Below, piece after piece: positions 3,147 to 61,040 of a stretch of 64,000 nucleotides of DNA. The stretch spans positions 1-64,000 of the IMG/VR virus record IMGVR_UViG_3300033143_005075; one strand, 5' to 3'. The position numbers and the translations under genes are program-made. Position 1 is the stretch's first letter. Each line of letters starts with the position of its first letter. This stretch comes from an uncultured virus (IMG/VR IMGVR_UViG_3300033143_005075). Taxonomy: Duplodnaviria > Heunggongvirae > Uroviricota > Caudoviricetes. The notes under the pieces are model-generated. The model saw only the letters and a program-made list of their open reading frames with translations, made no database searches and was not told the origin of the DNA.

Positions 3147-6100
3147 ATGACGAGTTTCAACGACCTGCACGTTGAATTCGCCACGGGAGCTTCTGCGCAA
3201 CTAAGTGTATTATTCGAAGATGGCGAAATGAAAATCGACATCACTGCGAACACCAAGCGCGGAGAGAAGAAGGCGAGAGTCGTGGCACGTGACTACGACC
3301 GAATGATCCCACCGTATTATGTAATGTTATCACCAGTATGCATCACACATGACCAAGAAGTATCCATTACACAATTTCTTAAGTACAACTGGGAAAAGAA
3401 GATGCTTCATATTCCACATGAGCATCATCGTGCTTCTACGTTCGATGGAACAGCTACCGAGAGAATACTGCAACGTGCGGTATTCAGTGATGCTGAATTA
3501 GCCAGGTTTAAACAAACCTTCGGATGGATACCAGAGAGCAGGTATCTGAACTTCAGTGAATTCAAGAAAGTTATCGCAACTACGTTACCATCGTGCTACA
3601 ATGCTGCCCGATGGCGCCTCGTAAGGAAGAATACCCTGATATACGAGAAAGTAGTCTCCAAGCTGTATCAGTTTGCATGTGAGAATATCAGTCAGGGTAT
3701 GCTTCAAAGAATAGTATCCAACGAAAACTCGCTCAGAATGGAGTATATTCCTAGCCGTCTAAAAGCTAGAGATGTAGCAGGCAAGGTTGTGCTTCCATTT
3801 GGAGCTCCAGAAAAGATTTACAATAACGAATATCTTGTCATGAGTGATACCCAACAGAGCGGAAAAGCAGGTGAGATAGTACACCTGAGTTTGGGAACCA
3901 AAATCACTAGCGATGGAGATGTCATTGCATATGGTAAGTACCCAGTAAGCTGGATCTTTGCTCACAACCCATTTCATCGACATATCTCGCCGAACAGACA
4001 AGTCGTGGCCAGATATACAACACAAGCATGTGAGTTACTCTACGATGAGCCTCCTCTCATGTTAAATCCAGAAGCAGACATGAATGATGAGCCAGAATTC
4101 CGACCCCATGGTCGAAATCTTCTGGCAGCAAGAATGGAGTATTATGGATATACTCATGAAGATGGCTGTGTCATTTCGAAAGAAGCATCTGAAGAATTCA
4201 TAACAATTGTCAAACACTATGATATCTTCAAAGCCAGAGATGCAGAATTGGCGGTACAACCTCTGCGAATCAATCCTGCAGAGATGATCCAGAAGTTCCG
4301 CTCCGCGGTGAACACTCTAGATGCATATGTAAACAGAGGACACCTCGGGAAATGCAAAGCCGGACCTATGCGATCATCTCTACAGAGAACAGCTATCGTG
4401 ACGGACATAAGAATCGAGAATGGAGACGACTCCGATGAAAACGTAAAGTATATACAAGTTGAATCGAGTTATCCCTTAAGATTATCAATCGGTGACAAAC
4501 TGGCAGATCATCATGGCAACAAGGTTATTGTGGCAAAAATCCTGCCAAGAAAAGATATGCCAAAGATAAATGATCAACCAGTAGATATCATCGTTCCACC
4601 ATATGTCGGAAAAAGGTGCTGTCCGAGTCGAATTCTTGAAGAAATGTATAGCATATATGCCCGAAAGACAACACAAGGCAAAATGCCCCTTTTGGCAAAT
4701 GACATTTCATTCAAAGATGCTACGAAGAAACTCAAAGAAGTTAAACTACCTCGAGAAGCACTAGTTGTAGACTGGACAAATGGTAGCTGGTATGAAAACG
4801 TGGGCTATGGTTGGGTTAGATACTTTCGACTTGAACAACATGCCGAATCAAAGGCTAAGGCCAGCAGGGATGTCCTAATGGACTATAGAGGAGTCGCTCC
4901 CCGCGGTAAAGGTATGTATACTCTTGCTGATGTTATGTTTAGCTTATACTCTGTTAATGCGGATGAGCTCATAAAAGAGATAGTCCTCGAAGTACGCAAA
5001 ACGCAAGCGGAAGAGGCGACAATCGATCATATGCAATGTTTCGGATTTACACTAGAAGGCGGATTTATTAAGAAATCCAGAAATGGCTTCTTGGTGCCGA
5101 AATCGCAAATGGATGGGATTGTGATCGATACAGCAATCGACCGAACAGCACTTACAGCTGAAACTGATATCGTGGAATCAGAACTACGTGAGAGAACAGT
5201 TCTAGATCCACGGCTTCTAAAGTCAAATGGCTATGTTCGAGTTCCAAAAGACATGAAGTTAATTTTAGGTGCATTCGCAAGATCGATAAATGTACCATCA
5301 TATGACCCAACCCAATTTGAGCGAAATGCACGAATGGGCCGAGATAAAGTGAAAACCGAAGATGTATATGTGTGCTCGGATGGCGAAATGTACATCAGAG
5401 TACCGAAAACGCTAAAAGCCCATATGCTCAATAATGGAAGTTTCACAGTTTCGGATGTTCAGAACGCATTGAACACATTGCTCGTATACTTCCAGAACTT
5501 CGAAAAGCACAAAGCTGGAGGATATGACAATCCATGGATAGAGCGAAGTATGATAACTCGCTCAAATCAAATGTTCAACATGGTAATGAATGGTATCGCA
5601 AAGCGTCTGTTCAGGAAGACAGGTATAATCCGAATGCTGGCATTTCCAAGAGTTATCAGAAGCTGCCATGCAGTAATATCGGGTAATCCACAACTAGACA
5701 TGACAACATGCGAGATTCCAATTCGGCTATTTAAGAAATGGTGTGCATCTGCCGATTTCCGAAAATCCTATATGATTCCGGAAGATGACTGGATGGACCT
5801 AACAACAGGATCCATTAATTCTATCCTGAAACGCCAAAAGGCAAGATGCCTAATCAGCCGAAATCCGGCACATCAGGTAAACAACGTAGCAGGCATGAGA
5901 ATGCTAGTATGGAAGGGAAACACAATTCGCTTCAATCCAGCATTAGTTACTGTTTTCGATGGTGACTTTGATGGCGATACAATGATTGCATATGCTCCAT
6001 TAGGAGCAAAGGCAAAAGCAGACTTGAGCAAAATCTGGATCGCCAAGTATTTCAACATGCTTTCTTGTTCCAAAGCCTTAAAGGGGCTCAAAATCTCTCC

Positions 6101-6773
6101 CCGCGAAAATCTCATGAAGCGGAAAGTAGACTTTCGGTTTTCAATGTCCACTGGTACCAGCGAAAACTGGAGAGATATCCGCGACAGATATAGCAAAGAG
6201 AAAAATGCTGACTTCAACAGGTATATGAAGGGAAGAGTCAGCATTGAGCACATAGTTAAAGGTCAGGCAGCTGCAGCAGCCGAGTTCAGATTTATGAAAG
6301 AAGGTGCTGCAAATGCCGGTAACATTGGTAATATCATGCGAAATATCATGGTGCAAGATCATGGTAGAGTAGGGATTACATATGCAAATGATCTCTACCA
6401 TTCACTCGCACAGCCTGCTCTAAACAGTAAGAATAGTGAAGGGCAAAAGGCTACTCTAGATATAGTAACAAATATGCTAAGGTCACTGGAAGCAGTCCCA
6501 AGACAGGAACTGCAGGACGAGCTCTCAAAGCTCGTGCGCCTGCCAGAGACCGCGCAGAAGGTGGTCGAAAGCATGTTTAAAGGTGGTAAGTGGCAGTCCG
6601 GCGTCAGCGTAATATGCGCAAGGACAACACCAGTTGCTCATTCCATAATGAGCGGAGGAGTTATAAGTCTCCATCGAGCAGCGGCTCAAGGTGATGACGG
6701 GAGCATTGTAAGTCTCTTCCTTCAAATGGCTTCAAGAAGCAACACAATGGTGATGTCGGATACGTCGAAGTAA
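3147..6773 (+). CDS. single-chain two-barrel DNA-directed RNA polymerase (beta-like + beta'-like fusion)
   Basis: beta-like motifs YGYTHEDGCVIS and GDKLADHHGNK; beta'-like motifs AVISGNP, LISRNPA and catalytic FDGDFDGD; GGGAGG RBS. Confidence 0.88.
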   Translation: MTSFNDLHVEFATGASAQLSVLFEDGEMKIDITANTKRGEKKARVVARDYDRMIPPYYVMLSPVCITHDQEVSITQFLKYNWEKKMLHIPHEHHRASTFDGTATERILQRAVFSDAELARFKQTFGWIPESRYLNFSEFKKVIATTLPSCYNAARWRLVRKNTLIYEKVVSKLYQFACENISQGMLQRIVSNENSLRMEYIPSRLKARDVAGKVVLPFGAPEKIYNNEYLVMSDTQQSGKAGEIVHLSLGTKITSDGDVIAYGKYPVSWIFAHNPFHRHISPNRQVVARYTTQACELLYDEPPLMLNPEADMNDEPEFRPHGRNLLAARMEYYGYTHEDGCVISKEASEEFITIVKHYDIFKARDAELAVQPLRINPAEMIQKFRSAVNTLDAYVNRGHLGKCKAGPMRSSLQRTAIVTDIRIENGDDSDENVKYIQVESSYPLRLSIGDKLADHHGNKVIVAKILPRKDMPKINDQPVDIIVPPYVGKRCCPSRILEEMYSIYARKTTQGKMPLLANDISFKDATKKLKEVKLPREALVVDWTNGSWYENVGYGWVRYFRLEQHAESKAKASRDVLMDYRGVAPRGKGMYTLADVMFSLYSVNADELIKEIVLEVRKTQAEEATIDHMQCFGFTLEGGFIKKSRNGFLVPKSQMDGIVIDTAIDRTALTAETDIVESELRERTVLDPRLLKSNGYVRVPKDMKLILGAFARSINVPSYDPTQFERNARMGRDKVKTEDVYVCSDGEMYIRVPKTLKAHMLNNGSFTVSDVQNALNTLLVYFQNFEKHKAGGYDNPWIERSMITRSNQMFNMVMNGIAKRLFRKTGIIRMLAFPRVIRSCHAVISGNPQLDMTTCEIPIRLFKKWCASADFRKSYMIPEDDWMDLTTGSINSILKRQKARCLISRNPAHQVNNVAGMRMLVWKGNTIRFNPALVTVFDGDFDGDTMIAYAPLGAKAKADLSKIWIAKYFNMLSCSKALKGLKISPRENLMKRKVDFRFSMSTGTSENWRDIRDRYSKEKNADFNRYMKGRVSIEHIVKGQAAAAAEFRFMKEGAANAGNIGNIMRNIMVQDHGRVGITYANDLYHSLAQPALNSKNSEGQKATLDIVTNMLRSLEAVPRQELQDELSKLVRLPETAQKVVESMFKGGKWQSGVSVICARTTPVAHSIMSGGVISLHRAAAQGDDGSIVSLFLQMASRSNTMVMSDTSK

Positions 6774-6783: not shown

Positions 6784-6826
6784 GGAGGACACGAATGGTC
6801 AATGTATCATTCGTGTCCCCCTTTTT
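6784..6826 (+). terminator. intrinsic terminator after the RNAP gene
   Basis: GGACACGAATG/CATTCGTGTCC stem followed by TTTTT. Confidence 0.7.
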
Positions 6827-6840
6827 ACAAAGGAGAAAAC

Positions 6841-9033
6841 ATGGAGAGCGTAAGTAGGCTTGCAAAAGCAATATTAAGAGAGTTTGACTCGTCCCCAAAG
6901 ACGATTAACTCACTAACAAGATGCATTTCGAATGCTATGACAAGAACCGAACAACTCGGAGATAATGATGTCATGCTTAAAGAAATCGCCACTAAGGCCG
7001 GCAACAAGAAGACCACCATGAATGAGGTGCTCTTAGTTGCTAGTTCGATATCCAGATCCCGATTATCCAATGAAATAGAGAGCACTGATATCGTATGTGC
7101 TGCTGCTAAGATAGCTAAATACACAAGCAACCACTTATACAGCTACATTCTATCAGAGAGTGGAACAAGGGTAGCATCAAAGGTAGAAATGCCAGGGAAC
7201 ATGTGCCTGGACTCCCTAGAAGAACCAATAGTAGGTCGCTTACATGAAATCACACAACTAGCAGCATGCATAGCTAGAAAGAACAGAGTTCCATTTGTTA
7301 TTGGTAAAACTGGTGTCGGTAAGACCTCTGTTGTAAAAGGACTCGCACGACTACTTGCATTCAATGCTATTCCTCAATTAAACGGAATGGTACTCCTTGA
7401 TACAAGTAAGTATCTTCAACCACCAGTTGAGTTAGCTCAGGGACAAATGCAAATGATCCAACCTAACATACCGACTAACACAATTCAAGGCCTACAACTG
7501 CCTGGATCTGCAGAACAGTCCAGAGCAATAGGTGTGTTTGATGGTGCTGGTAAGCAACATGCTCAACAGATTAATACAATGCGTAAGCACAACAGAGTCC
7601 TTGTTACATGTGACGAAAGTGAATATTCGGCTATTGTGGATACATCCAAAGAGCTAAAGAAGAGTGCGGTGGTGATCCGTGTGTCTGAACCTTCTGATGA
7701 AGAGACAAAGAAAATCATGCATATCAAGGCTAAGAAGTTTGAGTATGATTTTAACTGTAAGATCGCTGATGATGTACTCGATTATGCAGTTGACGTATCA
7801 ACTAAGTTCCATAGTGAAGCAAGCCAACCAACAAAAACATTAACTCTGATGGAAATCACATGTGCAACCAAGAGAGTAAAGATTACAAAGGACTCAAGCT
7901 TTCTTGAGACTGATATCGAGAAGGAAATCCGGGACGGAAATATTCCCCTTCTGAAGAAGCTGATTGAAGCAAGTGGAAACGAGAGCCTAGCAAAAGCAAT
8001 GCTAGTTGCTGATACTGCTGACATTAATAGAGAGGAAGTCAGTGATACATTAAGAATTGTTGCTGATATCTCTCCGAATGTCCCACTTGCAGCAATTACT
8101 GCAGACTCTGTTAAATTACTGCAAATGTTGGAACCTTATGTGAAAGAGAAAGTTTATGGTCAAGATGATGCTATATCATCGATCTGTAAAGCCATCAAAA
8201 GAAAGAGTCTTGGCTTAAGTGATCCCCAAAGACCTGCAAGTTTCCTATTTGTGGGACCAACTGGTGTTGGAAAAACATGGCTTGCCACTCAGATTGCAGA
8301 GCTAATGTTTGGCAGCGATAAGTCACTGGTCAGATTCGATATGTCTGAATACATGGAAAGACACAGTGTAAGCAAACTGATTGGAGCACCTCCCGGATAT
8401 ATTGGCTTCGATAAGGGAGGACAGCTCACTAATAAGGTATATAATAGACCTCATTGTGTCTTACTACTTGATGAGATCGAGAAGGCACATCCAGATATCC
8501 TGAACGCTTTACTTCAAGTACTTGAAGATGGAAGACTAACCGATAGCAGAGATAGAGAGGTAACATTCAGACACTGTATCATTATTATGACCAGTAATCT
8601 AGGCACAAAGCGAAGCATTAAATATGGAATGGGTTTTGGTAAAAGCAAGGACGAATCATCCAAAGAAAAGGTCAGTGATGAAATCAAGGGGTTTATGAGC
8701 CCAGAGTTTATTAACAGACTTAATATGATCGTATACTTCAAATCTCTATCTGATAAACCTCTCAAGAGAATCCTACAATATCAACTAAACCATCTCGGAG
8801 AGTTTTCCTCATATAAGATCAGCATCAAGGATGGAGTTATTGATCATATGATGAAAAGAGTTAAGGATAACGAAAAGGTCGAACTCTATGGTGCTCGAGA
8901 GGTCAAGAGGATTATCGAAACTGAGGTTACAGACCAAATCGCGAATGAGATCATAAAAGAAGGACTACCAACGGGAACAACAGTATTCCTCAAGATAGAG
9001 AATGACAAGCTAGTAGCTAAAAAGGAGAAGTAG
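6841..9033 (+). CDS. ClpA/ClpB-family AAA+ chaperone
   Basis: Walker A GKTGVGKT and GPTGVGKT; RFDMSEYMERHSVSKLIGAPPGYIG; LLLDEIEKAHPD; GAREVKR; start placed at the ATG behind AAGGAG. Confidence 0.92.
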   Translation: MESVSRLAKAILREFDSSPKTINSLTRCISNAMTRTEQLGDNDVMLKEIATKAGNKKTTMNEVLLVASSISRSRLSNEIESTDIVCAAAKIAKYTSNHLYSYILSESGTRVASKVEMPGNMCLDSLEEPIVGRLHEITQLAACIARKNRVPFVIGKTGVGKTSVVKGLARLLAFNAIPQLNGMVLLDTSKYLQPPVELAQGQMQMIQPNIPTNTIQGLQLPGSAEQSRAIGVFDGAGKQHAQQINTMRKHNRVLVTCDESEYSAIVDTSKELKKSAVVIRVSEPSDEETKKIMHIKAKKFEYDFNCKIADDVLDYAVDVSTKFHSEASQPTKTLTLMEITCATKRVKITKDSSFLETDIEKEIRDGNIPLLKKLIEASGNESLAKAMLVADTADINREEVSDTLRIVADISPNVPLAAITADSVKLLQMLEPYVKEKVYGQDDAISSICKAIKRKSLGLSDPQRPASFLFVGPTGVGKTWLATQIAELMFGSDKSLVRFDMSEYMERHSVSKLIGAPPGYIGFDKGGQLTNKVYNRPHCVLLLDEIEKAHPDILNALLQVLEDGRLTDSRDREVTFRHCIIIMTSNLGTKRSIKYGMGFGKSKDESSKEKVSDEIKGFMSPEFINRLNMIVYFKSLSDKPLKRILQYQLNHLGEFSSYKISIKDGVIDHMMKRVKDNEKVELYGAREVKRIIETEVTDQIANEIIKEGLPTGTTVFLKIENDKLVAKKEK

Positions 9034-16086: not shown

Positions 16087-16926
16087 ATGGAAGACCCAAG
16101 AGAACAAAAGCTTATCGATATCGATAAACTCATTACCGATATAGGTATTGATAATCACCGAGTCAGGCACAAACTCCTGAACATGATCCATCTAGCATCT
16201 TCCACAGAGAAAAGGAAGATCTCCATCGGAGGTGATGTATGGAGTGGTGTTCTTCCATACGATTATGTAGCAGGACCACTCAATCCCTCAAGTAGAGTAC
16301 ACATTTGGGGCCCTCCCTCATCAGGTAAAACCGCACTCGCTCTTAATATTGCTAGTCAAACTGCATGTTGTGGCGGGAAAATCCTTCTCATTGACACTAC
16401 TTTTGCAGCAAACAAAAACTATATAACTAAACTGAGCGGAGACTTCAGCATTGTCCAAACTGCAGAGATTGCTCCAGTCATCCCCGCGGTCGGAGAATAC
16501 AACATCATAATTCTAGACGACTTTGCTTGTGTTACCGATCCTGGCTCTGTTATACAACTTATGTCATCATGTGGCATCACAGAAACCATCCTAATAGTAT
16601 GCAACCAAATCAGAGCTAACATGAAGGGTGGATACTATGCTCGACGACCTGGCCTTCAAGGCATGATGACTATGTCTATCTATATGAAGCGCGTAGAGAA
16701 ACGAGAGAAGTATTCCATCAGCCAACTTAAGCTGGAAAGATATCGCGGTAAGGGAACTAAGGAAGGCAGGATTGCAACGCTTCCTATGGACTATGATGGT
16801 AATATCCTGAACAACAAGATAGTAGAAACACTACTTCCCTTAGCAATGATGGATAATCCAGCAACAAACACAAAAGATATAGAAATCGTAGAGAAATGGA
16901 TAAAGAAACAGTGGCAAAAGGACTAG
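16087..16926 (+). CDS. RecA/RadB-family ATPase (divergent)
   Basis: WGPPSSGKT Walker A, LLIDT, IILDD, NQIR. Confidence 0.75.
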   Translation: MEDPREQKLIDIDKLITDIGIDNHRVRHKLLNMIHLASSTEKRKISIGGDVWSGVLPYDYVAGPLNPSSRVHIWGPPSSGKTALALNIASQTACCGGKILLIDTTFAANKNYITKLSGDFSIVQTAEIAPVIPAVGEYNIIILDDFACVTDPGSVIQLMSSCGITETILIVCNQIRANMKGGYYARRPGLQGMMTMSIYMKRVEKREKYSISQLKLERYRGKGTKEGRIATLPMDYDGNILNNKIVETLLPLAMMDNPATNTKDIEIVEKWIKKQWQKD

Positions 16927-37057: not shown

Positions 37058-37534
37058 ATGAAGGTAAGCGATCATTTAGTAAACGTATTGCGTCAGATAA
37101 TCAAGTTTGGATTGTCTGAAGCAGAGGGCTCACGATACTTTGATGAGCATATTCGTTCCAACAAAAAGACACTGGAAGAACTGATCAAGCTAGACTGGGC
37201 TCCTCCATCATTCAAGTTCTTCTTAAAACTTCATAGTACTGATGCACCTAGATGTCCTGACTGTGGTACACGCATGAACGTTGACTGTCCAGCCGCTAAA
37301 TGCCCAAGACGAGACTGTAATGAAGCCATCTATCTAAATTATCCTGAATCAGAAGAAATGTGTAAAGCTTGTGTATCATATAAGATGAGATCTTGTCCGT
37401 TCCCCTTTGGAGGGAATGGCAGAACAAAAGGAGAGAAAAATGCCAAAAGGAAAGAAGAACAAGGCGCAAGAATTACTCGAAGTAACAACGAGAGCAATGA
37501 CAGCCAAAGCAAAAGACAAACGATTAAACATTGA
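37058..37534 (+). CDS. Cys-rich zinc-binding protein
   Basis: CPDC, CPAAKC, CKAC. Confidence 0.55.
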   Translation: MKVSDHLVNVLRQIIKFGLSEAEGSRYFDEHIRSNKKTLEELIKLDWAPPSFKFFLKLHSTDAPRCPDCGTRMNVDCPAAKCPRRDCNEAIYLNYPESEEMCKACVSYKMRSCPFPFGGNGRTKGEKNAKRKEEQGARITRSNNESNDSQSKRQTIKH

Positions 37535-38609
37535 GATCATAAAAGCATCCGAGCTAAGAAGTCAGGAGTATATACCAACAGGTAACCCAGCATTTGATTT
37601 AGTATTCGGAGGCTGGCCACGTGGTATGTTCTCATGTATCTATGGCGGACCCGGATGTGGAAAGACAAGTCTTATTATGCAGGCTATTGCACATGAACAA
37701 AGTTTGAACATGGGAATATTCATAGCTGAATCTGAACAAAGCTTCTCAAAGAAATGGGCAGTAACACACGGAGTTGACCTCGAGAACCTAGTTATGACAC
37801 AAAGCACAGATCTTGGTAGTGTCCTAGATGCTGTCGTCAGGATCGCAGCGACTGGCAAATGTGATGTCATCTACGTTGACTCTCTCGCTACTCTAAGTCC
37901 TAAAGAGATGAGAAAGAAGGGAGTCGATGAAGATGACATGGCAATCGTAGCTAGAAGACTCGGTCGATTCTTCCAGATTGCTCCTGAGACCATTAAGAAA
38001 TCAAATACTGCTATTGTATTTGTTACCCAGAAAAGAGATTCATTAGATCTATTCTCTGGTGGTCTGGAACAATATCCTGGAGGCAACGCTCTCAAACATC
38101 AATTGGCAATGGCTATCAATGTACGAAGGTCTGGAAAGTCCGCTCAAAGAGACGGCGGAGCCAAGTTCATACAAGACAGACACAAAATTGGCTTTGCCAG
38201 TATGTGGAAAGCAATAAAATCCAAGGTTGATGTTACTGAGAATACAGGTGTCCTCCTCGACTTCTTCTTTGGAAGCGGATTTGATAATAAGAGTACTGTA
38301 TTCGAACTAGCACTTGGACATGGCATTCTGGAGAAGAATGGTCCAGGAGGATATAAGTTCATGGCGAACGATGGTAGCACATATGATCAACATGGATCAG
38401 AGAATGTTCTTCGTGACATCAGAACCAATGATGGATTATACAATCAAATGATAGAATCAATCAAGACAAGATGTAAACCAGGTAACTTCACGAACCCACC
38501 TTCTGATGTGGATACGGAGTACGAACAAGAAGCCATCCAAGATGAGAAAGCAAGAATGGAATCAAAACCAGAGGACAAAAAGACCGAGGAGAAACCAGCT
38601 AAGAAATGA
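37440..38609 (+). CDS. recA: RecA/UvsX recombinase
   Basis: IPTG, GGWPRG, GGPGCGKT, VDSLATL, PGGNALKH. Confidence 0.9.
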   Translation: MPKGKKNKAQELLEVTTRAMTAKAKDKRLNIEIIKASELRSQEYIPTGNPAFDLVFGGWPRGMFSCIYGGPGCGKTSLIMQAIAHEQSLNMGIFIAESEQSFSKKWAVTHGVDLENLVMTQSTDLGSVLDAVVRIAATGKCDVIYVDSLATLSPKEMRKKGVDEDDMAIVARRLGRFFQIAPETIKKSNTAIVFVTQKRDSLDLFSGGLEQYPGGNALKHQLAMAINVRRSGKSAQRDGGAKFIQDRHKIGFASMWKAIKSKVDVTENTGVLLDFFFGSGFDNKSTVFELALGHGILEKNGPGGYKFMANDGSTYDQHGSENVLRDIRTNDGLYNQMIESIKTRCKPGNFTNPPSDVDTEYEQEAIQDEKARMESKPEDKKTEEKPAKK

Positions 38610-44010: not shown

Positions 44011-47000
44011 ATGCCAGATGATCTAGATCTTATATCTGTAGACGATCTGTTAGCGTCTGTAGATAGTGACATTAAAGAGTTTGATGATAACCTTGAACAT
44101 CTCAAAGCTAAACGAGAAGAGGATACTCTTACAAGCTATCTAACTGATCTTGGATTTACACGAAAAGCTAAGGGTCCCGCATCAAGAAAATATCATCTAG
44201 TCCTTGTGGGAAAATCGGCAGATGGAATCGACATGATTCTCAGTAAGCATATTAATTTCGAGAGAGTCAATGCGATTAACCTACTTGACCAGAAGATACG
44301 GGTCAATAACGCTATCATCATTATCGATAACGAAGATGATTTCAAAGCTGCTAAGAAGGGCATAAAGACGAAGACTAAGTGTCCGCAGCTTTTTAATAGC
44401 GTAGTTGTCCTGGTCAAGAACAGAAAGATTATCGACTATTTATATTTCACAAAGAAACCTGCTATAGATGCTGAATCTAAGATAGTCTCTATCGTCTCTG
44501 GACGAACACTTCGTATCAGATTCCCATTTAATCTACATCTACATCCTGGGCTACCCAGAGAACATGCACAGATAACATCTCTGCCAATGGATCTTATATC
44601 ATCAATTGTTCTCTTGGTTCAGAACAGAATCTTTCCAATTGAGGGTCGACAAGGAAGATATATTGGAAACGTATATAGATACCAATTCCAACAAAGAAAC
44701 GAGGGATTGAGTCAAGCACTAGACGGATCCACCAATTATGGTCTTCCTGCGGTCGTAAATGATCATATCCTATCAGATATTGATCCAGTAAATATTCAAG
44801 GTACAACAGAGGAAGATGATCCTGAATCTAATAGTGCTCGAAACACTCGCAAAAGACTAGATGCATGTGATGTGAACATTGTTGCATATGAATTCGAAAT
44901 AGAGCTAGCAAAGTTTGAGGGCTCCGTTCTGAGAATTGAGCTATTACTAGGAATCTTGGAAAAAGAAGGCTTCGACGTTGACGATAGCACTAAGACTACT
45001 ATTATTAAAGCAGTAAGGAACATCAAGAAATGGATGTCCCCTCCACCTGCTCAAGTAGAGAAAGATGACTTGTTCAGAACACACATGGGACAGATCGAAA
45101 AGATCAACAAGATACACAAGCTAGAGCTGCAGTGGCATCAGAAGTATTCAATTGCTATGGCCATGAGAAAGAAGGCTTCAGTACTACAATGTGATGTAGG
45201 CCTAGGCAAAACTCGGATCGCAATCGGACTCCATCTTGCACTCGGTGTGAAGAGGACACTAGTATGCGTAGAACCCGGTGCTCTCAATGAATTCATAAGA
45301 GAGATGGATAAACTGAAGATGGAGAAACCTTTCATCATCAAGAAGCTGACAGACATCCCACTCGCCAAGGAAAATGCCACACCCATAACCTTAATCGGGT
45401 ACTCGATCTTAGGTGCTGAGACAAAGATAAAGAGTCGACGGTCCAATGAAGATAAGAAACAGAAGAGCCTATACAAGATACATACTACAGGTGATGATCT
45501 ACGAGGACTATTTGATCTGGTAATCTTTGATGAGTGTTTCACATATGACACTGAAATTATGACAAACAAAGGGCTAAGAAAGATTGGAGACATTGTCACG
45601 AACAGAGAAGATGTACTCGCATTATCAAAGAACTTAGAAACTAACAACTGGGAATACAAACCCGTAGTACATTATTTTCATAAGCCATATGTTGACAACC
45701 TCGTCAAAGTAGAATATAATAATGGACATAGCATCATATGTACTCCAGACCATAAAATCTGGACAAAGGAGAAAGGCTATGTCAAGGCAAAGGAACTACG
45801 AAACGAGACAGTGTGCTTCATGTGGAACAACGTTCACATATTACAGACCAAAATCAACAAGACAACAAAAATGCTGCAGTACGAAGTGTGCAGGAATTCT
45901 TCGCCGTGTAAAGATGATAACAAAAACCTGCAAGTGGTGTGGGAAAGACTTCAGCCTAGGTACCGGACTAACGAGAAAGAGCAAGAACACACGATTCTGC
46001 GGAAAGCAATGTTCTGCAAAATGGCGATGCAGTCAACCAAAACAACAAAAGAGATTCCACATTATACAAAAGAAATACAAGAAGAAAGCAACTGCTGCTC
46101 TACGAAAGACTGGATTCAAAGCACAATCAGAACGAATGAAACGAATGAACGCAGACCCAGAATTTCAGAGGAAAGCTATTGCTGGCACAAAGAAGAGATG
46201 GAAAAAGAACCCCACGTTTCTCTCCAGAGGAGGAAACGGGAAGTTAACTGTGCCACAACTGAAGCTTCACAAAGCAACAGGATACCCAATGGAATTTCAG
46301 ATCGGTCTAAAGAATCTCAGAAGGAAGAGACCAGATCTCTGTCTTCCGACAAAGTATGCAGTCGACCTAGCAATTCCCGACAAGAAGATAGCAATCGAAG
46401 TAGACGGAGAATCTCACAAGACAAAGAAATGGAAGTATCTCGACAAAAGGAAAGAATCCGTATTGCTTATGCTAGGGTGGAAAATGTTACGATTCTGGAA
46501 CAAAGAAGTAATGGAAAATCTGGATACAGTCCTCAGCAAGATCAAAGAGTGTTCAACATCGACGTAGGAGATAATCACAACTATGTAGCTAACGGATTAC
46601 TCGTCAAAAATTGTCAAAACGTTAAATCTCCTACATCTTTGAAGTCAAAGTCAGCGATCAGACTAAGACCAGCTCGCTCCATGTTCATGAGTGGTACAGT
46701 CATTACTAATAAGATGGCTGAGCTAGCTACATATGCAGTGATCGGATATGGTAGCAAGAGCTGTGTATCCAAGGTCGATGCCACTCCGATATCCCACATA
46801 GGAACAGAGATCAGACGGAAAAATAAGAAGGTAGTAGCCAGGCTCGGAGAGGACAAAAAGGGAGAACCAACATACAAGATTGTTCATAATATATCAACAA
46901 CAAATATGAGGCTTGCAAAAATCAATGATAAGATGAGCTCAGATCCTGAATTCACAAAGGACTATGTCCGAAACTTGGTTGTCAAGGTCGCCAGAGAGAA

Positions 47001-47763
47001 TGAAGGATTGGTAAAGAACGATATGTTTCGTTTCAATGTGAAAGAGATGAAAGTTGTCGCGGAACCAAACAATACACAGTTCGAACAATATCTGTCTATT
47101 CTAGATGGCTCAAGAGAATTCGTCAGAGATGAAAGCAAAAGCTTAGCACGACTAATCGCCATGATGAAAATCTCTGAGTGTCCAAAACTTCTTGATCCAA
47201 CATGGCAGAACACACCAACAGCTAAGCAATTAGTAACAAGAGACCTGGTCATTGACAAACTCAGTGAGGGAAGAAGTGTACTAGTCTTTACAGGATTCAC
47301 AGAAGCCAGTATAGATCTTAGTAATCTATTCAAGAACAGTGGAGCGAGTACTTTCTTGCTTTCAAATAAGATGACACCTTCAGCAAGATATAAAGTCATC
47401 GAGAACTTCAGAAAGACTCCAAATAGTGTAGCTGTTGGTAACATAGGAATCCTTGGAAAGAGCTTCAATTTGGAACAAGCTGATGTTGTTATCATGTCAG
47501 ATATTCCATGGTCACCAGCGTTCTATGAACAAGCTATCGGAAGAATCCTGAGGCCCGATCAGACAGGTAACCCAGAGGTCTATGTAATATTCAACAGGTT
47601 TATGATTGATCAATATAAATTCGAAGTTATCTCCTCAAAGAGAAAGACGATCGACAAATATCTGAAAGACAAAGACGTATCAGTCGAGGAGACAAAACAC
47701 ATATCATACAGAGACTTCCTACAGTTGGTTATCAGGAAGGCAGATGAGAGAGGTTCTACATGA
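44011..47763 (+). CDS. SNF2-family helicase/ATPase containing an intein
   Basis: DVGLGKT, motif II IFDE|CQ split by the insertion, MSGT, FNLEQA, QAIGRILR. Confidence 0.9.
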   Translation: MPDDLDLISVDDLLASVDSDIKEFDDNLEHLKAKREEDTLTSYLTDLGFTRKAKGPASRKYHLVLVGKSADGIDMILSKHINFERVNAINLLDQKIRVNNAIIIIDNEDDFKAAKKGIKTKTKCPQLFNSVVVLVKNRKIIDYLYFTKKPAIDAESKIVSIVSGRTLRIRFPFNLHLHPGLPREHAQITSLPMDLISSIVLLVQNRIFPIEGRQGRYIGNVYRYQFQQRNEGLSQALDGSTNYGLPAVVNDHILSDIDPVNIQGTTEEDDPESNSARNTRKRLDACDVNIVAYEFEIELAKFEGSVLRIELLLGILEKEGFDVDDSTKTTIIKAVRNIKKWMSPPPAQVEKDDLFRTHMGQIEKINKIHKLELQWHQKYSIAMAMRKKASVLQCDVGLGKTRIAIGLHLALGVKRTLVCVEPGALNEFIREMDKLKMEKPFIIKKLTDIPLAKENATPITLIGYSILGAETKIKSRRSNEDKKQKSLYKIHTTGDDLRGLFDLVIFDECFTYDTEIMTNKGLRKIGDIVTNREDVLALSKNLETNNWEYKPVVHYFHKPYVDNLVKVEYNNGHSIICTPDHKIWTKEKGYVKAKELRNETVCFMWNNVHILQTKINKTTKMLQYEVCRNSSPCKDDNKNLQVVWERLQPRYRTNEKEQEHTILRKAMFCKMAMQSTKTTKEIPHYTKEIQEESNCCSTKDWIQSTIRTNETNERRPRISEESYCWHKEEMEKEPHVSLQRRKREVNCATTEASQSNRIPNGISDRSKESQKEETRSLSSDKVCSRPSNSRQEDSNRSRRRISQDKEMEVSRQKERIRIAYARVENVTILEQRSNGKSGYSPQQDQRVFNIDVGDNHNYVANGLLVKNCQNVKSPTSLKSKSAIRLRPARSMFMSGTVITNKMAELATYAVIGYGSKSCVSKVDATPISHIGTEIRRKNKKVVARLGEDKKGEPTYKIVHNISTTNMRLAKINDKMSSDPEFTKDYVRNLVVKVARENEGLVKNDMFRFNVKEMKVVAEPNNTQFEQYLSILDGSREFVRDESKSLARLIAMMKISECPKLLDPTWQNTPTAKQLVTRDLVIDKLSEGRSVLVFTGFTEASIDLSNLFKNSGASTFLLSNKMTPSARYKVIENFRKTPNSVAVGNIGILGKSFNLEQADVVIMSDIPWSPAFYEQAIGRILRPDQTGNPEVYVIFNRFMIDQYKFEVISSKRKTIDKYLKDKDVSVEETKHISYRDFLQLVIRKADERGST
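45535..46611 (+). mobile_element. intein (359 aa) inserted in the helicase Walker B motif
   Basis: Block A CFTYDTEIMT, block B CTPDHKIWT, block F VFNIDVGDNHNYVANG, end VKN followed by +1 Cys; removal restores IFDECQNVKS. Confidence 0.93.
45779..46567 (+). CDS. nested +1-frame endonuclease (Zn-finger repeats + Vsr/DUF559-like nuclease), putative homing endonuclease
   Basis: AAGGAG 7 nt before ATG 45779; CASC...CSTKC and CKWC...CGKQC; YAVDLA...IAIEVDGESH...D-x-R-x4-L-x-x-LGWKMLRFWN. Confidence 0.85.
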   Translation: MSRQRNYETRQCASCGTTFTYYRPKSTRQQKCCSTKCAGILRRVKMITKTCKWCGKDFSLGTGLTRKSKNTRFCGKQCSAKWRCSQPKQQKRFHIIQKKYKKKATAALRKTGFKAQSERMKRMNADPEFQRKAIAGTKKRWKKNPTFLSRGGNGKLTVPQLKLHKATGYPMEFQIGLKNLRRKRPDLCLPTKYAVDLAIPDKKIAIEVDGESHKTKKWKYLDKRKESVLLMLGWKMLRFWNKEVMENLDTVLSKIKECSTST

Positions 47764-52684: not shown

Positions 52685-53515
52685 ATGGATATACAGTCAA
52701 CAAGATATGCACAGTGGTTTATGCTGTGCCCTACCTACGCTGATATCGCTGAGAACGGTGATACAAGAGTTGCTGAAGTAGTGTATGAACGTTCGGTCGT
52801 TTTCGCTATGGCTAGGTACATGACCCTCCAAGTTAAACGTAGAGAATACTCTTTACCCCTCCTCAAAAAGCTTCTCAGAGCGCTCTTAAAGCGCTTTGAT
52901 GAGCAACTCATCAATAAGGCCTACCGTGCCGTCGATAACCTTTCATTTTGTGTAGGGAAAGCTATTCATACTGGTGGAATATCCAGAAAAAGAGTAGCTG
53001 GTTTTAATCTCCCTGTACTATACGTAGGTGACGGGAACCCAATCAATCTCAATATTGACCTTATGTTGTCTGAGGTTAAGACTAGTGAGACCTCGAGTTC
53101 CAGTCCAAAGTTTGGCCTTCGCTTAATAATTTACCATTTAGATCCTGACAGGGAACCAAGCAAGGTATGGTTACTGTATAACCCACGAGTAATGGGGACA
53201 GTCTGCCTCGCATCCGATCTCATGTCGACGAATCCAGTCTTAGTAGACGTTATTTCTGCTTTCAGGAAAACTGTATATAGGCTGGATCTCACGCCAGAGT
53301 ACATAGACGAATGCAAACAAAACATCCACAGATTAGGGAGGCAGATGACCTATGGGATATTGGGGAAGAATGCAACGAGACGCTGCAGGAATTGTCCTTG
53401 CAGAGGAGAATGTGAACGAAGAGGAACAACGGGAAAGAACGATGTTCGAAAGATATCAGAAATATCCACAAGAGTTGATGGACCTCTTCTCAGAGGCATT
53501 GGTGGAGCTTCATAA
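52685..53515 (+). CDS. degenerate PD-(D/E)XK / Cas4-like protein
   Basis: N-terminal CP and C-terminal CRNCPCRGEC; catalytic residues not evident. Confidence 0.45.
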   Translation: MDIQSTRYAQWFMLCPTYADIAENGDTRVAEVVYERSVVFAMARYMTLQVKRREYSLPLLKKLLRALLKRFDEQLINKAYRAVDNLSFCVGKAIHTGGISRKRVAGFNLPVLYVGDGNPINLNIDLMLSEVKTSETSSSSPKFGLRLIIYHLDPDREPSKVWLLYNPRVMGTVCLASDLMSTNPVLVDVISAFRKTVYRLDLTPEYIDECKQNIHRLGRQMTYGILGKNATRRCRNCPCRGECERRGTTGKNDVRKISEISTRVDGPLLRGIGGAS

Positions 53516-53810
53516 AGAAGGGCGAGTTAGTGACATAGATTTCCTCTTTGTCTATTCCTATATGATGACAAGGATGAATCTGAAAGACCTCGCTAGAAGG
53601 TATGTAGTTGGCTTCGATACTCCGGCGCCAACATATGCATCCAGACAGTATATCCACTTTGGGGTGGTACGTAAGGTCTGGAAGCTCATTGATGAGAGAG
53701 TCCGGGAAGAACATAATATACATAATATCATGCATGAAATGGAACAGAGAGAAGTGGCTTCTCAGATTCATCCAAAGGTAGATGAGCCGTTAGCAAAGAA
53801 TCTATTATAA
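53442..53810 (+). CDS. HTH protein, sigma region 4-like
   Basis: MNLKDLARRY...SRQYIH pattern. Confidence 0.4.
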   Translation: MFERYQKYPQELMDLFSEALVELHKEGRVSDIDFLFVYSYMMTRMNLKDLARRYVVGFDTPAPTYASRQYIHFGVVRKVWKLIDERVREEHNIHNIMHEMEQREVASQIHPKVDEPLAKNLL

Positions 53811-54367: not shown

Positions 54368-57109
54368 ATGAGACTATTTATCTGCGGCGAACACCCAATT
54401 AATCATTCAGGATTCTCTCAACTTACACATCATATCAGTCAGATCATTGATAACGAAATGAAATACGATGGTTGTCCTATCAGTGATGTCACAACTATTG
54501 GGTACAGCAGGGGCACCAACGAGGAATTCCCTACGAAATATAGGCTCATTAATGCAGCGACACCGTCCATTGTAGGTAGCATGCAAGGGACCATGATGGC
54601 TGAAGATGGTAAGTGTGGCATGCATACCCTACGCACTATGCTTAGAAATACCAATGAGAAATGCATAGTCCTGACCATCGGTGATCCATGGACATTCTGG
54701 TACATGAAGACAACAAAGCTCATGTTCCCTAAGATGAAATGGATCAGCTACCTTCCAGTAGAATCTACTGAACTAGTGGACGTCGCGAAGTTCTCCTTTC
54801 CTGGAAGGAATATTGAGTGTAACATCGGCCGGCTCTATTCATATGCAGATAAGATCATTGGATATACAAAGAATGGTATGAACGTTGTTCAGAAACTAGT
54901 CGGTAAAGACATCTGTAACTCATTCATCTATCATGGTATCGACAACAAGAGGTTGCGAAGCATAGAGCCCAGAGAGTTTAGACGTCTTAAGGATAAGTTC
55001 GTTGTTGGTACAGTCTGCCGAAACGGCTGGCGTAAAGCTCTCGATGTCCTTTTGATAGGCTTCGCCAATTTCATTAAGAAGTGGGAAGCACTCAAGAAGA
55101 AGGGACCAGAACCAGTCTTACTTCTTCATACACCCAGACATGATGTTGCAGGATGGGATCTACCTTCACTAGCTAGGAAGCTAGGCATTGAGAAGTATAT
55201 ACTGATATCTGATATGCTAGTAGACTCGTTCAAGAAAACCAGGGACCCCCGGACCGGAAGAATCAATTCAGGAGTGAAGAAGGGTGCATCACTAGAAGAC
55301 TTAGTCTCTCTGTATAAAGCCATGGATGTTTATATCAATGTGAGCAGAGGTGAGGGGTTTGGTATCCCCGTAATCGAGGCAATGAGTTTGGGTGTTCCTG
55401 TAGCATACATCGATCATGCAAATCTTGGTGAGATCTGTGAGTGCAAAGGCATCCCAATTGAAGTGGGTGGATATGAATACAAGGAGAACTATGAGATTCA
55501 GGCAGCAATAGCTAATCCCGAATCTATTGGCTTCGAGTTGGCTGAGATGTATAAGTATGCTCAGAAACAGGATGCTGCAACCATTACTGTTCCAGCTGGT
55601 ATCAAGTTCACTAATGAGTTGGACTGGAATGGTGCATCGATGATTAAACAATGGAAGGATGCAATCAAATCTACCGCGGAAGATTATGAGAAGGAAGAAG
55701 ACAAGACATATTCGAACCAGAGGGTTATTGCTCTCTCCACTTATAATGTGGAGTGTGGGATTGCTACATATACAGAGAACCTGATTAATAATCTTCAGCG
55801 CATCGACAAAAGAAGAGACTATTTAGTTCTCGACGATACCTCAGATCCAGAGAAGTATCTGGACCTCATCCTCGATTCAGATAAGGCTACGATCATACAC
55901 ATTCAGTATGAGCCCAACCTATTCTCACCAGAGAAGCTTATGCCGTTTATGGCTAAGCTAAAGTCCTTATCGGGTGGCAAGATTAAGACTGTCCTCACCA
56001 TGCATCAGGAAAATGAGCGCAGTATCAGAGGACTGGATGGCATCGCCGATAGCATTATCCTTCATTCGGATATGTTTAATATTGGAAACAGCCTTAAGTA
56101 TACTAATATTATCAAGGCGCAACATCCATTCTATACTGGGATTGAAATTATGAGAAAGGATGCTAGAGATAAAGTACGTGCTGATCTGGGATTCAAAGAA
56201 GATGACTTTGTTATTGGAACCACTGGTTTCCTCTTATCATACAAGATGATCCTTCAGATCTCAAAACAGATCATAGATATGATGAAAGACCGGCCGAAGT
56301 ATGCTCTGCTTCTCCCGGTCTCGCGACATAGGAATGATAGCGCAGGCTTTGCTAATAATGTTGTCGAAGAGATCATGTCATATGCTAAAGAGAACGGGGT
56401 AGGAGACCGTGTCGTGATCAAGCTTGGATTCCATGAACAATCCAAGCTGGTAGAATATCTGCAGTGTCTTGATATTGGTTGGATGTTTGTTAATAACCAG
56501 GCAGTCGGAGCCAATTCGGGCTCCGTACGCATGCTTATTAGTAGTGGAGTTCCATGTATCGTTGCTGGTAAGGGCAAGATGCATCATGAACTCTATAAGC
56601 TTAGGTGTACACTAAGTGTTGCTACCACAAATGACCCTGTCGAGTTTATCAAATCTGGATTAGAGTTTGCTGATGGGCAACCAGATCTCATCAAATCAAT
56701 GCGAACAAATTGTATCCAAGCAGCAGCTAGGTTTAGCTTTACAGCATTTGCTGCCATGCATAAGACGCAGATTTACGATCGTCTGTTTACACAGATACAG
56801 ATCGCAACATACACTACACAGGAGGTTGACAATGAGCAACGATGTAATGGAAAGATTCAAGGGCAAGATAGTATCGCTGGAACTTCCAATGATGGGCGGG
56901 AGAGCAGCAGGAATGGAGGGGAAACTCCTGGACTTCGATGCGAAGGACATGGTAGTGGAGACCAAAATCCCAGATCCGAGCGACTCAGCAATGGGATTCA
57001 TGGCAACAGTGCTCATCAGCAGACAGCTGGTAACAACAATAATCATGAAAGGAGACGTCAGCGTGCCTATGGTGGAGGGGAGCAGCCTCCTAGACAGCCA
57101 GGGAGATAA
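54368..57109 (+). CDS. tandem GT-B glycosyltransferase (GT4-like)
   Basis: SGFS, RN-x-x-RK, SRGEGFGIPVIEAM; second GT-B unit begins STYNVECGIATYT. Confidence 0.85.
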   Translation: MRLFICGEHPINHSGFSQLTHHISQIIDNEMKYDGCPISDVTTIGYSRGTNEEFPTKYRLINAATPSIVGSMQGTMMAEDGKCGMHTLRTMLRNTNEKCIVLTIGDPWTFWYMKTTKLMFPKMKWISYLPVESTELVDVAKFSFPGRNIECNIGRLYSYADKIIGYTKNGMNVVQKLVGKDICNSFIYHGIDNKRLRSIEPREFRRLKDKFVVGTVCRNGWRKALDVLLIGFANFIKKWEALKKKGPEPVLLLHTPRHDVAGWDLPSLARKLGIEKYILISDMLVDSFKKTRDPRTGRINSGVKKGASLEDLVSLYKAMDVYINVSRGEGFGIPVIEAMSLGVPVAYIDHANLGEICECKGIPIEVGGYEYKENYEIQAAIANPESIGFELAEMYKYAQKQDAATITVPAGIKFTNELDWNGASMIKQWKDAIKSTAEDYEKEEDKTYSNQRVIALSTYNVECGIATYTENLINNLQRIDKRRDYLVLDDTSDPEKYLDLILDSDKATIIHIQYEPNLFSPEKLMPFMAKLKSLSGGKIKTVLTMHQENERSIRGLDGIADSIILHSDMFNIGNSLKYTNIIKAQHPFYTGIEIMRKDARDKVRADLGFKEDDFVIGTTGFLLSYKMILQISKQIIDMMKDRPKYALLLPVSRHRNDSAGFANNVVEEIMSYAKENGVGDRVVIKLGFHEQSKLVEYLQCLDIGWMFVNNQAVGANSGSVRMLISSGVPCIVAGKGKMHHELYKLRCTLSVATTNDPVEFIKSGLEFADGQPDLIKSMRTNCIQAAARFSFTAFAAMHKTQIYDRLFTQIQIATYTTQEVDNEQRCNGKIQGQDSIAGTSNDGRESSRNGGETPGLRCEGHGSGDQNPRSERLSNGIHGNSAHQQTAGNNNNHERRRQRAYGGGEQPPRQPGR

Positions 57110-57119
57110 AGCTAAATAA
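56832..57119 (+). CDS. Sm/Hfq-like fold protein, nested in the 3' end of the GT ORF
   Basis: GGAGG RBS; FKGKIVSLEL..G...EGKLLDFD...VLISRQLVTTI resembles Sm1/Sm2 motifs. Confidence 0.55.
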   Translation: MSNDVMERFKGKIVSLELPMMGGRAAGMEGKLLDFDAKDMVVETKIPDPSDSAMGFMATVLISRQLVTTIIMKGDVSVPMVEGSSLLDSQGDKAK

Positions 57120-57121
57120 CA

Positions 57122-57478
57122 ATGAAACTGATCAATACAGATGTGAAAAAGATTCCAAAGTCTAAGTCACTATATAGTATTGGGATGGCAATCGATTCCA
57201 GCATCTATTATGTGGCTATGGTCGACATCAATAGTCAGAAGAACTTCGTAGAAGAAGTATCACTCTCGCCAAGTAGGGAAAAGTTTACAGGGGTCTTCCG
57301 AGAGATACAAGACGAAGAAACCTGGAAGAAGGTCAGCGCATTCTTTAATGCGGCTGGACTTTTCGAACAGTTCTGGAAGGGCAAGAACTGGAGGTGGCAT
57401 AGAGAGAATGGCAAAGAAGTCGTACCAGACTGGTTCCAACGGAAATATAACGATCCGGCACCAGACAAGAAATCGTAG
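57122..57478 (+). CDS. hypothetical protein
   Basis: ORF track. Confidence 0.6.
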   Translation: MKLINTDVKKIPKSKSLYSIGMAIDSSIYYVAMVDINSQKNFVEEVSLSPSREKFTGVFREIQDEETWKKVSAFFNAAGLFEQFWKGKNWRWHRENGKEVVPDWFQRKYNDPAPDKKS

Positions 57479-58169
57479 TCTTACGTACACAGTAGACATT
57501 AACCACGTAGCACCAGCGATCATGTACCTACTCGACTTCCTTAAGTCGAGTAGGTATCTTGTTCTAAGTAGTAGTATCGCGAAGAGGTGTGGGTTTCATG
57601 AGTATATCCATCGTCATGAGAAGCTATGCTGGACGGTGGTGCGACTCTGTACAAAGACTTATCCTATCATCGCAGCACAAGATGCCTTCCGACAGATGTT
57701 CCATAAGCCCTTAAGTATCTATGGGTGGGATACCTTGTGGTCAGATCTTTGGTATGATTCATTCTATGTTATGCCTCAACGCTTTCGACCAGTTAACAAA
57801 ACAAAAATATATACAGAGTATCTTCCTTACTTCCTCAGGATGCTTCCTTTGTATACATCAAAAGCATTACTTAAGATACATAAGACATATAAGAGACACC
57901 TTCGCTCATCTATTCATCCTGTTATAGAGCTTAACGATGATTATATAGATAATAAGAAGAAAGCACTAACCAGATTAGATCTTATTAAGCGCCTTGTTTC
58001 TATGGAACAGGCGCCAAATAGTACCATCCAGAATATGTATTATTATCTTAAGGATGTTGGAAATGTTAAAGACTCTGGCTATGTGGGATTCGGAAAGCTA
58101 TTAGGATATAAGGACTTAGATGCTGCAGGACTTAGACGCATCGGATTCTCGGTTTTGAACTCACATTAG
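57348..58169 (+). CDS. hypothetical protein (true start probably downstream of the hairpin)
   Basis: Long ORF; aromatic-rich. Confidence 0.4.
   Translation: MRLDFSNSSGRARTGGGIERMAKKSYQTGSNGNITIRHQTRNRSLTYTVDINHVAPAIMYLLDFLKSSRYLVLSSSIAKRCGFHEYIHRHEKLCWTVVRLCTKTYPIIAAQDAFRQMFHKPLSIYGWDTLWSDLWYDSFYVMPQRFRPVNKTKIYTEYLPYFLRMLPLYTSKALLKIHKTYKRHLRSSIHPVIELNDDYIDNKKKALTRLDLIKRLVSMEQAPNSTIQNMYYYLKDVGNVKDSGYVGFGKLLGYKDLDAAGLRRIGFSVLNSH
57525..57556. terminator. perfect 14-bp inverted repeat, probable terminator or regulatory hairpin
   Basis: TACCTACTCGACTT-CCTT-AAGTCGAGTAGGTA. Confidence 0.55.
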
Positions 58170-60078: not shown

Positions 60079-61040
60079 TATATCACCATGATTTCCTTGA
60101 TCTTTGCCGCGGTGTTGGCCGGGCTGGTCTCTTCAGTATACTCTATAACCTTTCGTATGTCAATTGAGTTAATTACCTTCTGAGGGTCTTCTATGACCTC
60201 TCTGATGCTGTCTCTATAGTTGTCCTTCATACGATAGACAACACCTTCTGGAAGACCATCAAATTGAGGATAGCTTGGCACCACAACAGGCCGCCCGCTT
60301 GCTAATGCAACGCGGGCAGTGCCGCTTGCATTGTACGTATCACCACCATCAGCCTGAACGAGAAGGATCATGTCACACTTCTTGTTCAGTGCTTTAATGA
60401 TGTCGGATTTGTCTTTGTAATAATTAAAATCGAATGTAACTCTATCTTCGAAACCCTGACGCCGGCAAACACTCCTGCACCTATCCAGATATGATTTAGA
60501 GATCTGGAAGTGTTTCAGAGTTACGTCATTAATAGTGCTTACGATATGAAGATGCATATCTAGATTATATCCCAGCTCCATGATGCCTCTGATAAGACAT
60601 GTTCTGGGGACAGCAAAGCCATGCATCCCAATAGTGAAAATGTTCTCTGCTTTTGTCTCGTCTGGAGAGTCTGTGATAGGTTCAGAGTAGTGCTGTATTA
60701 CATAGATAGGAATAGTAATAACCTGAGCGAGTTTTGATTTCATGATCTCAGTGGAGACAAACACACCCTCACATAACTCGTTGATCTTTCTGTGAGTGAT
60801 CTGGTTGTTCGGATTGGTAAGATTTACAGAGTGCATGTAAATAAAGGTTTTAGGACGCAGCACTTCTATTTGTTCCCAACAATCACCATCATATGCGTAC
60901 TCATGTTCTAGTAAGATAACATCTGGAGAAATAATGACTGAATCATTTATCTCCATGTTAAGATAAGAGTTCAGTCCTTTGGCAAACTCGGCTATTCCGC
61001 ACTTCTTCTTAAGAGTTGGAACTAGGTGCAGATTCATCAT
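60078..61040 (-). CDS. GT-B glycosyltransferase
   Basis: CGIAEF, HEY, SGTARVALASGRPVVV. Confidence 0.7.
   Translation of the reverse strand: MMNLHLVPTLKKKCGIAEFAKGLNSYLNMEINDSVIISPDVILLEHEYAYDGDCWEQIEVLRPKTFIYMHSVNLTNPNNQITHRKINELCEGVFVSTEIMKSKLAQVITIPIYVIQHYSEPITDSPDETKAENIFTIGMHGFAVPRTCLIRGIMELGYNLDMHLHIVSTINDVTLKHFQISKSYLDRCRSVCRRQGFEDRVTFDFNYYKDKSDIIKALNKKCDMILLVQADGGDTYNASGTARVALASGRPVVVPSYPQFDGLPEGVVYRMKDNYRDSIREVIEDPQKVINSIDIRKVIEYTEETSPANTAAKIKEIMVI

Follow-up and report, generated by a model that had tools for sequence, protein, structure and literature searches.

A putative single-chain two-barrel RNA polymerase with cellular-type motifs from an uncultured contractile-tailed phage

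Introduction

The closest described counterparts of the gene reported here are RNA polymerases in which a beta-type and a beta'-type barrel are joined in one chain. According to the available part of PMC2919709, Orf6 of the Kluyveromyces lactis linear plasmid pGKL2 (982 amino acids, aa; Rpb2::Rpb1) and NCgl1702 (2,169 aa) are beta::beta' fusions. Both barrels are also found in one chain in gp206 of Salmonella phage Arash (1,525 aa) and in a protein of Vibrio phage D69 (1,527 aa), and YonO of SPbeta (839 aa) and gp64 of P23-45 (616 aa) are single-chain non-virion phage enzymes. Here we describe an open reading frame (ORF) at positions 3147-6773 (plus strand) of a 64,000-nucleotide stretch from an uncultured virus of the class Caudoviricetes, namely positions 1 to 64,000 of IMG/VR record IMGVR_UViG_3300033143_005075, hereafter called the window. 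Its 1,208-aa product, P0001, is predicted from Pfam, PDB, and family-profile searches to be a single-chain two-barrel RNA polymerase.

Other phages distribute the two barrels differently. In the sections of PMC7481178 available to us, mReC is composed of separate beta and beta' proteins, each of at least 800 aa, with an NADxDGD motif, and the crAss-like gp66 is a giant virion protein without matches to cellular hidden Markov models. In the portion consulted, Chaban et al. assign fused derivatives to the cellular clade and state that many viruses have two polymerases (PMC10770324); in the rows of their Supplementary Data 4 that were examined, there are two polymerases per genome. We propose, with a probability of roughly 0.6, that P0001 is a one-chain, non-virion, DNA-dependent RNA polymerase that would transcribe the late (virion) genes at the end of a probable cascade of phage-encoded enzymes.

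P0001 contains a beta-type and a beta'-type barrel

The reading frame of P0001 is open throughout, and all motifs named in a first-pass annotation of the window, which had noted beta-type motifs followed by beta'-type motifs, were located in the protein: GYTHEDG at residue 334, GDKLADHHGNK at 449, AVISGNP at 842, RNP at 905, and DFDGD at 940. Domain searches agree with this order. The Pfam families RNA_pol_Rpb2_6 and RNA_pol_Rpb1_2 match residues 286-569 (E 1.6e-19) and 900-964 (E 8.4e-11), respectively, both over the cut-off, and a PDB search aligned beta chains to residues 414-569 and then beta' chains to residues 818-974. The matches to the beta barrel include chain 7s00_C (E 2e-7), which we take to be the AR9 enzyme. 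A beta' profile aligns to residues 811-973, including switch 2 (E 4e-19). P0001 has all eight invariant residues of two-barrel enzymes (D339, K451, K459, R905, P907, D940, D942, and D944), as compiled in the accessible text of PMC2919709, where they comprise DxDxD, RxP, an aspartate of the beta barrel, and two lysines. At the level of sequence, it is thus confirmed that P0001 carries a beta-type barrel and then a beta'-type barrel in one chain.

An assembly artefact does not account for the fusion: the same ORF is present in a second assembly, G001, which is complete (234,008 bases with terminal repeats), and a full-length relative found in a motif scan, P0108 (1,162 aa), is also encoded by a single ORF and is 31% identical to P0001 over 1,131 columns (E 9e-165). 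The beta' subunit of Escherichia coli has 1,407 aa. The length of P0001 is 44% of E. coli beta plus beta' (1,342 + 1,407) and about 50% of the Bacillus subtilis pair (1,193 + 1,199), so that the earlier description of P0001 as less than half the size of the bacterial subunits is correct for the former and not for the latter. The term minimal does not apply to P0001, as both YonO and P23-45 gp64 are smaller.

A family of single-chain relatives

A family profile was searched against 1.84 billion representatives and retrieved 30 proteins with E<=1e-30 and 401 at 1e-10. Seventy alignment rows were chosen from the best 150 matches by length and coverage. Thirty-two of the rows were judged full-length, and three of these were removed: the two halves of an interrupted gene in G003 and P0341, which branches elsewhere. 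This left, among the chosen rows, 29 full-length single-chain relatives of 1,075-1,271 aa. The eight invariant residues are all kept in 27 of the 29, at identities of about 17-31%, and the other two proteins have a glycine at the position of R905. A genome scan identified a third member in G003, which is, like G002, a fragment of a related, syntenic phage. The Atlas independently contains unnamed clusters of 59-135 members with lengths of 1,006-1,221 aa, in which the two Pfam families occur at shares of 27-100%.

The matches also include half-size proteins. About ten are beta'-only forms (527-572 aa) that begin at profile positions 588-615; about six are beta-only forms (630-700 aa) that end at positions 533-577. 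For one beta-only and one beta'-only protein (P0247 and P0260), the longest contig is 6,117 for both. These proteins hint at a natural two-gene form of the family, split at the junction between beta and beta'. A beta'-only and a fused protein (P0243 and P0235, 27% identical) also have the same longest contig value of 6,273, and are possibly paralogues on one contig.

No family member was found in a cultured phage: tblastn searches with four members returned no match covering 80% of the query, the best cultured-phage matches being the Arash and D69 fusions (24-26% identity over 15-24%), and tblastn detected none in plasmids. A four-row family profile matched none of the five cultured phages with the nearest capsid protein, in a scan that had no positive control. 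None of the 68 loci selected by a bridge-helix DNA pattern had a family match (positive controls of the profile passed separately), word-based searches with P0001 alone returned cellular subunits and other fused types only, and scans of metagenome contigs for relatives returned nothing.

The orthologue in G003 is split by 426 bases (L095:8362-8787) exactly within the catalytic motif (VFD|GDFDGD). The preceding exon ends with U and the insert with G, as in group I introns. The insert has no Rfam match at the gathering level.

Organization of the chain

No Pfam or PDB match covers the approximately 230 N-terminal residues of P0001 that precede the first recognisable beta motif. The GYTHEDG motif (positions 4146-4166; all coordinates in this section are on the plus strand) contains the acidic pair E338/D339, equivalent to E836/D837 of yeast Rpb2, and the aspartate is present in 43 of 50 aligned rows. 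It is followed within the beta-type barrel by a 108-residue insert (4164-4490) at the position of the flap, and then by GDKLADHHGNK (4491-4523) with the putative catalytic lysines K451 and K459, which are conserved in 44/46 and 43/45 rows, respectively. The distance of 108 residues from the acidic pair to the first lysine is shorter than in three cellular beta subunits (147-254) or two larger fused phage enzymes (132-133), but exceeds that in a family of about 1,800-aa phage proteins with the motif GDKxxDxHGNK (17-25, three members). From its position and length, the insert of P0001 may be a shortened flap.

The beta'-like clamp part starts at DPRL (5205-5216; D687 in 49 of 51 rows), a start comparable to that of the beta'-only relatives. 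Inspection by eye of the sequence after DPRL found no zinc-finger cysteines. A switch-2-like segment, K824 to R829, leads into the first strand of the beta' barrel, AVISGNP (5616-5690; K824 in 49 of 52 rows). Pfam, motif positions, and the family alignment place the magnesium-binding site at RNP and DFDGD (5859-5978), which provide R905, P907, D940, D942, and D944. DFDGD is followed by 264 residues that include the conserved motifs K..G.A...G and Q..L..K, within the bridge-helix-like KEGAANAGNIGN and the trigger-like LAQPALNSKN (6297-6434), and the spacing between the two is 28-33 residues in all 29 full-length members. In the aligned rows, K1051 is conserved in 56/56, G1058 in 55/55, Q1089 in 51/56, and K1095 in 53/55. 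By likeness to motifs of cellular enzymes, YonO, and gp64, they probably represent the bridge helix and trigger loop. As judged from these motifs and the profile comparisons below, the family unites a beta barrel of cellular type with a short C-terminus of single-chain type.

Comparison with described enzymes

The family was placed by means of a quick tree built on 99 rows and 197 columns of the beta' barrel region; a filter had excluded rows with atypical DxDGD. Thirty-nine of the 41 family rows, together with two long-branch rows, form one group with support 85, whereas a separate group with support 96 contains the cellular enzymes together with the Arash-type and 2,000-aa fused ones. Profile comparisons used a four-row family alignment, with YonO and gp64 represented by single sequences. 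The family matched the 2,000-aa fused group (probability 99.8%, residues 302-962), the Arash-type group (99.4%), and the GDKxxDxHGNK family (99.0%, 608 columns, residues 218-1079), the last being the sole match that spans the bridge and trigger region. The hhalign probabilities for the single sequences of YonO and P23-45 gp64 were 0.2 and 0.4, which amounts to no match. The tree is moderate evidence that the family stands apart from the cellular and Arash-type fused enzymes. The first-pass annotation had noted cellular-like motifs in one chain, beta type before beta' type, and had suggested a reduced RNA polymerase lineage of its own; both the 29-member family and the phylogeny support this.

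The design itself is known already. pGKL2 Orf6, NCgl1702, and Arash gp206 preceded P0001 as fusions, and its single-chain arrangement is therefore not a novelty; the family appears to be unnamed. By description, pGKL2 Orf6 is likewise one chain in beta-then-beta' order that has lost about half of each subunit and retains cellular-like motifs. However, Orf6 belongs to a yeast plasmid and, as stated in the part of PMC2919709 that describes it, is without trigger, lid, and rudder, whereas P0001 has a conserved trigger-like motif.

The Arash and D69 fusions have a flap-sized insert (132 residues) like that of P0001, but they stop about 90 residues after DYDGD. P0001, with its 264 residues and bridge- and trigger-like motifs after DFDGD, does not fit a type defined by beta plus the N-terminal half of beta', with the C-terminal half on a separate gene. 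Besides gp206, Arash encodes gp216, a separate beta' protein, and a sigma factor (PMC10585845, passages on these genes), and both fusions branch with the cellular enzymes in the group with support 96. The gp206 gene (L003:4087-8664), which is annotated as subunit beta and adjoins the portal gene, and that of the D69 hypothetical protein (L002:4093-8676) also hold the beta' catalytic barrel. PMC10585845 names gp206 and gp216, and the fusion is unremarked in the passages concerned.

The GDKxxDxHGNK family of IMG/VR phages shares with P0001 that motif, GDFDGD, and a short link from bridge to trigger, but it has no flap insert, carries a large unrelated N-terminal region, and lies outside the P0001 family in the quick tree. 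We provisionally label it NCgl1702-like; six of its sequences served in the comparison as a proxy for NCgl1702. P0001 has neither the flapless barrel nor the very large chain of this proxy family. About 25 related phage contigs (L063-L092; 105-128 kb or partial) encode such a single-chain two-barrel protein, which has no match in cultured phages. YonO and gp64 resemble P0001 in their short bridge-to-trigger link, but have no flap insert (in YonO, DGCG at 249 is followed by LPWVKG at 267), and the portion of PMC7824862 consulted describes the flap (SBHM) insert as missing from YonO and NCgl1702-like enzymes. P0001 thus has neither the flapless beta barrel nor the profile similarity that would place it with YonO. 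The mReC and phiKZ/AR9 enzymes have alignable cellular-like motifs, as P0001 does, but in separate subunits, whereas P0001 is one chain with VFDGDFDGD in place of the mReC motif. By description, P0001 is also distinct from crAss-like gp66, as its chain has 1,208 aa, has Pfam matches over the cut-off, and is encoded outside the virion block.

A study titled on "three RNA polymerases" reportedly concerns an N4-like phage. The literature search found no account of the P0001 family or of a phage with three two-barrel enzymes; closed-access papers and supplements, including the 23 family alignments of PMC10770324, may bear on both.

Two further polymerase-like genes

G001 encodes two more DFDGD proteins, both outside the window: P0230 (912 aa) and P0231 (2,274 aa). 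They were the only proteins besides P0001 (E 3e-261) with E<0.2 when the family profile was compared with the 204 ORFs of the genome (E 3.4e-9 for P0230 and 0.019 for P0231). The P0230 gene (L101:10922-13660, minus strand; profile match at 58.2-58.4 kb) is located at a switch of strand bias, where the arm containing the window begins. Its motifs are DGC at residue 233, MKIAVDTMK at 246, RHP at 429, DFDGD at 463, IGRATQ at 537, and QSFLDGIKH at 575, with a flapless, YonO/gp64-like spacing. The positional orthologue in G002 (L107:2688-5354) is 20% identical (E 1.6e-4) and keeps RSP and DCDGD. We regard P0230 as a probable polymerase.

The P0231 gene (L104:8949-15773, plus strand) belongs to the block of tail genes and encodes RKP at residue 1547, DFDGD at 1602, GTGPVYNF at 1838, and QQANISMKH at 1876. 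It is flanked by genes for a 2,570-aa intein-bearing giant protein and for a giant protein with an N-terminal PD-(D/E)XK nuclease domain, and homologues of these flanking genes also flank gp034 of phage KLEB27-3, an annotated structural protein with NRYP..DYDGD. Somewhat less firmly than P0230, P0231 can be viewed as a polymerase. KLEB27-3 is a Bacillus phage, and its gp034 (L122:5004-12308; 2,434 aa) has a weak Rpb1_2 match (E 0.015) and is itself a candidate virion polymerase.

Proposed function of P0001

Two-barrel RNA polymerases catalyse their reaction by means of two magnesium ions where the barrels meet. Because the catalytic residues are conserved, P0001 would use the two-metal mechanism of cellular enzymes, with K451, K459, and R905 placed around the nucleotide. 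The shortened clamp would hold the DNA, the bridge helix and trigger loop would be joined by a short link, and the alpha and omega subunits would not be required. Use of a DNA template is indicated by switch 2, which is tied to DNA templates in the accessible text of PMC2919709. P0001 is very probably an active DNA-dependent RNA polymerase.

The location of the gene outside the virion block suggests that P0001 is made during infection, and a non-virion enzyme is likely. In a possible transcription programme, which we infer less firmly, a putative virion-packaged 2,274-aa polymerase would transcribe the first genes, the 912-aa polymerase, from the start of the early arm, would transcribe the block containing the P0001 gene, and P0001 would then succeed it, perhaps aided by an accessory factor bound to the retained flap. 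If the other two proteins act earlier, as an apparent virion enzyme and an apparent early one, P0001 would be left with middle-to-late transcription; that it transcribes the late genes is, judged by analogy, an evenly balanced proposition. More tentative still is the full scheme, in which the whole programme would be run by three single-chain two-barrel polymerases (an injected virion, a flapless early, and a flap-bearing late enzyme), the last representing an undescribed family with fused and split forms that bridges cellular-type and YonO-type enzymes.

Several observations weigh against the cascade that ends with P0001. The AlphaFold model of P0001, predicted from a four-sequence alignment, has a mean local confidence score (pLDDT) of 35 and a template-modelling score (pTM) of 0.26; it is unusable, and both barrels therefore rest on sequence evidence. 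In the alignment of P0230 with its G002 orthologue, one candidate barrel lysine matches and the other does not. P0231 found no support in the Pfam, PHROG, PDB, phage, or Atlas libraries, its beta-barrel lysines were not located, it matches KLEB27-3 gp034 at the catalytic motif only (E 0.003), and the proteins in its slot in 0305phi8-36 and MTATph1 have no DxDGD. A promoter motif hunt found none, and no homologue of the G002 sigma factor described below was detected in the genome encoding P0001 (tblastn best E 2.3).

The main alternative, which we consider unlikely, is that P0001 is an active non-virion polymerase for its own middle (replication) block, and that the late genes fall to the host polymerase, either alone or together with a phage sigma factor. 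The P0001 gene does head a conserved replication block, the late genes of P23-45 are transcribed by the host enzyme (PMC10770324, portion consulted), and G002 encodes a sigma-70-type protein (L106:10133-11089, minus strand; Sigma70_r2, E 2.7e-7) at the upstream end of its virion block. However, that sigma gene lacks a detectable counterpart here, as noted above, and the early arm begins with a separate polymerase-like gene, which lies upstream. It is improbable that P0001 is a core only, needing separate phage or host subunits, such as an N-terminal beta part or an alpha-like or sigma-like factor, on double-stranded DNA. The short, unmatched region before the first beta motif would fit such a core, as would the multi-chain enzymes of phiKZ-like phages (PMC7824862) and Arash (PMC10585845) described in the available passages, whereas the 72 proteins of the window and 18 others contain no other RNA polymerase subunit family in Pfam or PHROGs, and the 29 relatives have a narrow range of lengths. 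Two-barrel folds serve PolD and RNA-dependent polymerases too, and the P0001 gene is located among replication genes. Nevertheless, a primase-like or RNA-templated polymerase acting in replication and not in transcription is very improbable, as the phage encodes a DnaG-DnaB fusion of its own, and P0001 has switch 2 and a flap-sized insert, which are missing in RNA-dependent enzymes according to the consulted parts of PMC2919709 and PMC7824862.

As a soluble-sized chain that combines cellular-type catalytic motifs with an insert the size of a flap, P0001 would allow a direct test of what is dispensable in the approximately 400-kDa core, alpha and omega included. P0001 is informative on the origin of single-chain enzymes because it combines traits of both clades of Chaban et al., the beta barrel of cellular type and the short bridge-to-trigger link of YonO type. 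Three two-barrel polymerases in one phage, if confirmed, would go beyond phiKZ, AR9, and P23-45, whose schemes have two enzymes.

Candidate specificity factors and promoters

The helix-turn-helix protein encoded at 53442-53810 (plus strand), which the first-pass annotation had put forward as the promoter-specificity factor, has no Pfam match at E<=1 and no counterpart in the two related phage fragments (tblastn best E 1.5), and the proposal is not supported. The protein encoded at 57348-58169 was rejected as a sigma-like factor, having no Pfam match and no similarity to the positional gene of G003. The sequence TATAACAAGAGA occurs in five copies against 0.11 expected, but it was chosen as the top 12-mer, and its flanks are coding-like or on both strands; it was rejected as a promoter.

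Genome context

The window constitutes a replication and metabolism arm with genes for PolB, a primase-helicase, a clamp loader, RecA, SSB, NrdD, and an endolysin. The P0001 gene is at the head of the block of replication genes, whose order is kept in G003, and the virion genes are located elsewhere, on the opposite strand. The terminase, capsid, and tail-sheath families indicate a contractile-tailed phage, and the capsid protein is about 25% identical to those of 0305phi8-36, KLEB27-3, MTATph1, ME3, Edson, and WH1 (eight records). Immediately downstream of the polymerase gene is a gene for a ClpB/ClpA-like AAA+ protein (6802-9033, plus strand), which is also near the polymerase gene in G003, and a tRNA-Met is encoded at 2048-2120, about 1 kb upstream. 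The two RecA-like genes (16087-16926 and 37407-38609) are both retained in G003. A helicase with an intein is encoded at 44011-47763. Genes for glycosyltransferases and methyltransferases, lying on both strands, are clustered where the arms join (54368-63998 and beyond) and may serve for the glycosylation of DNA or of the virion.

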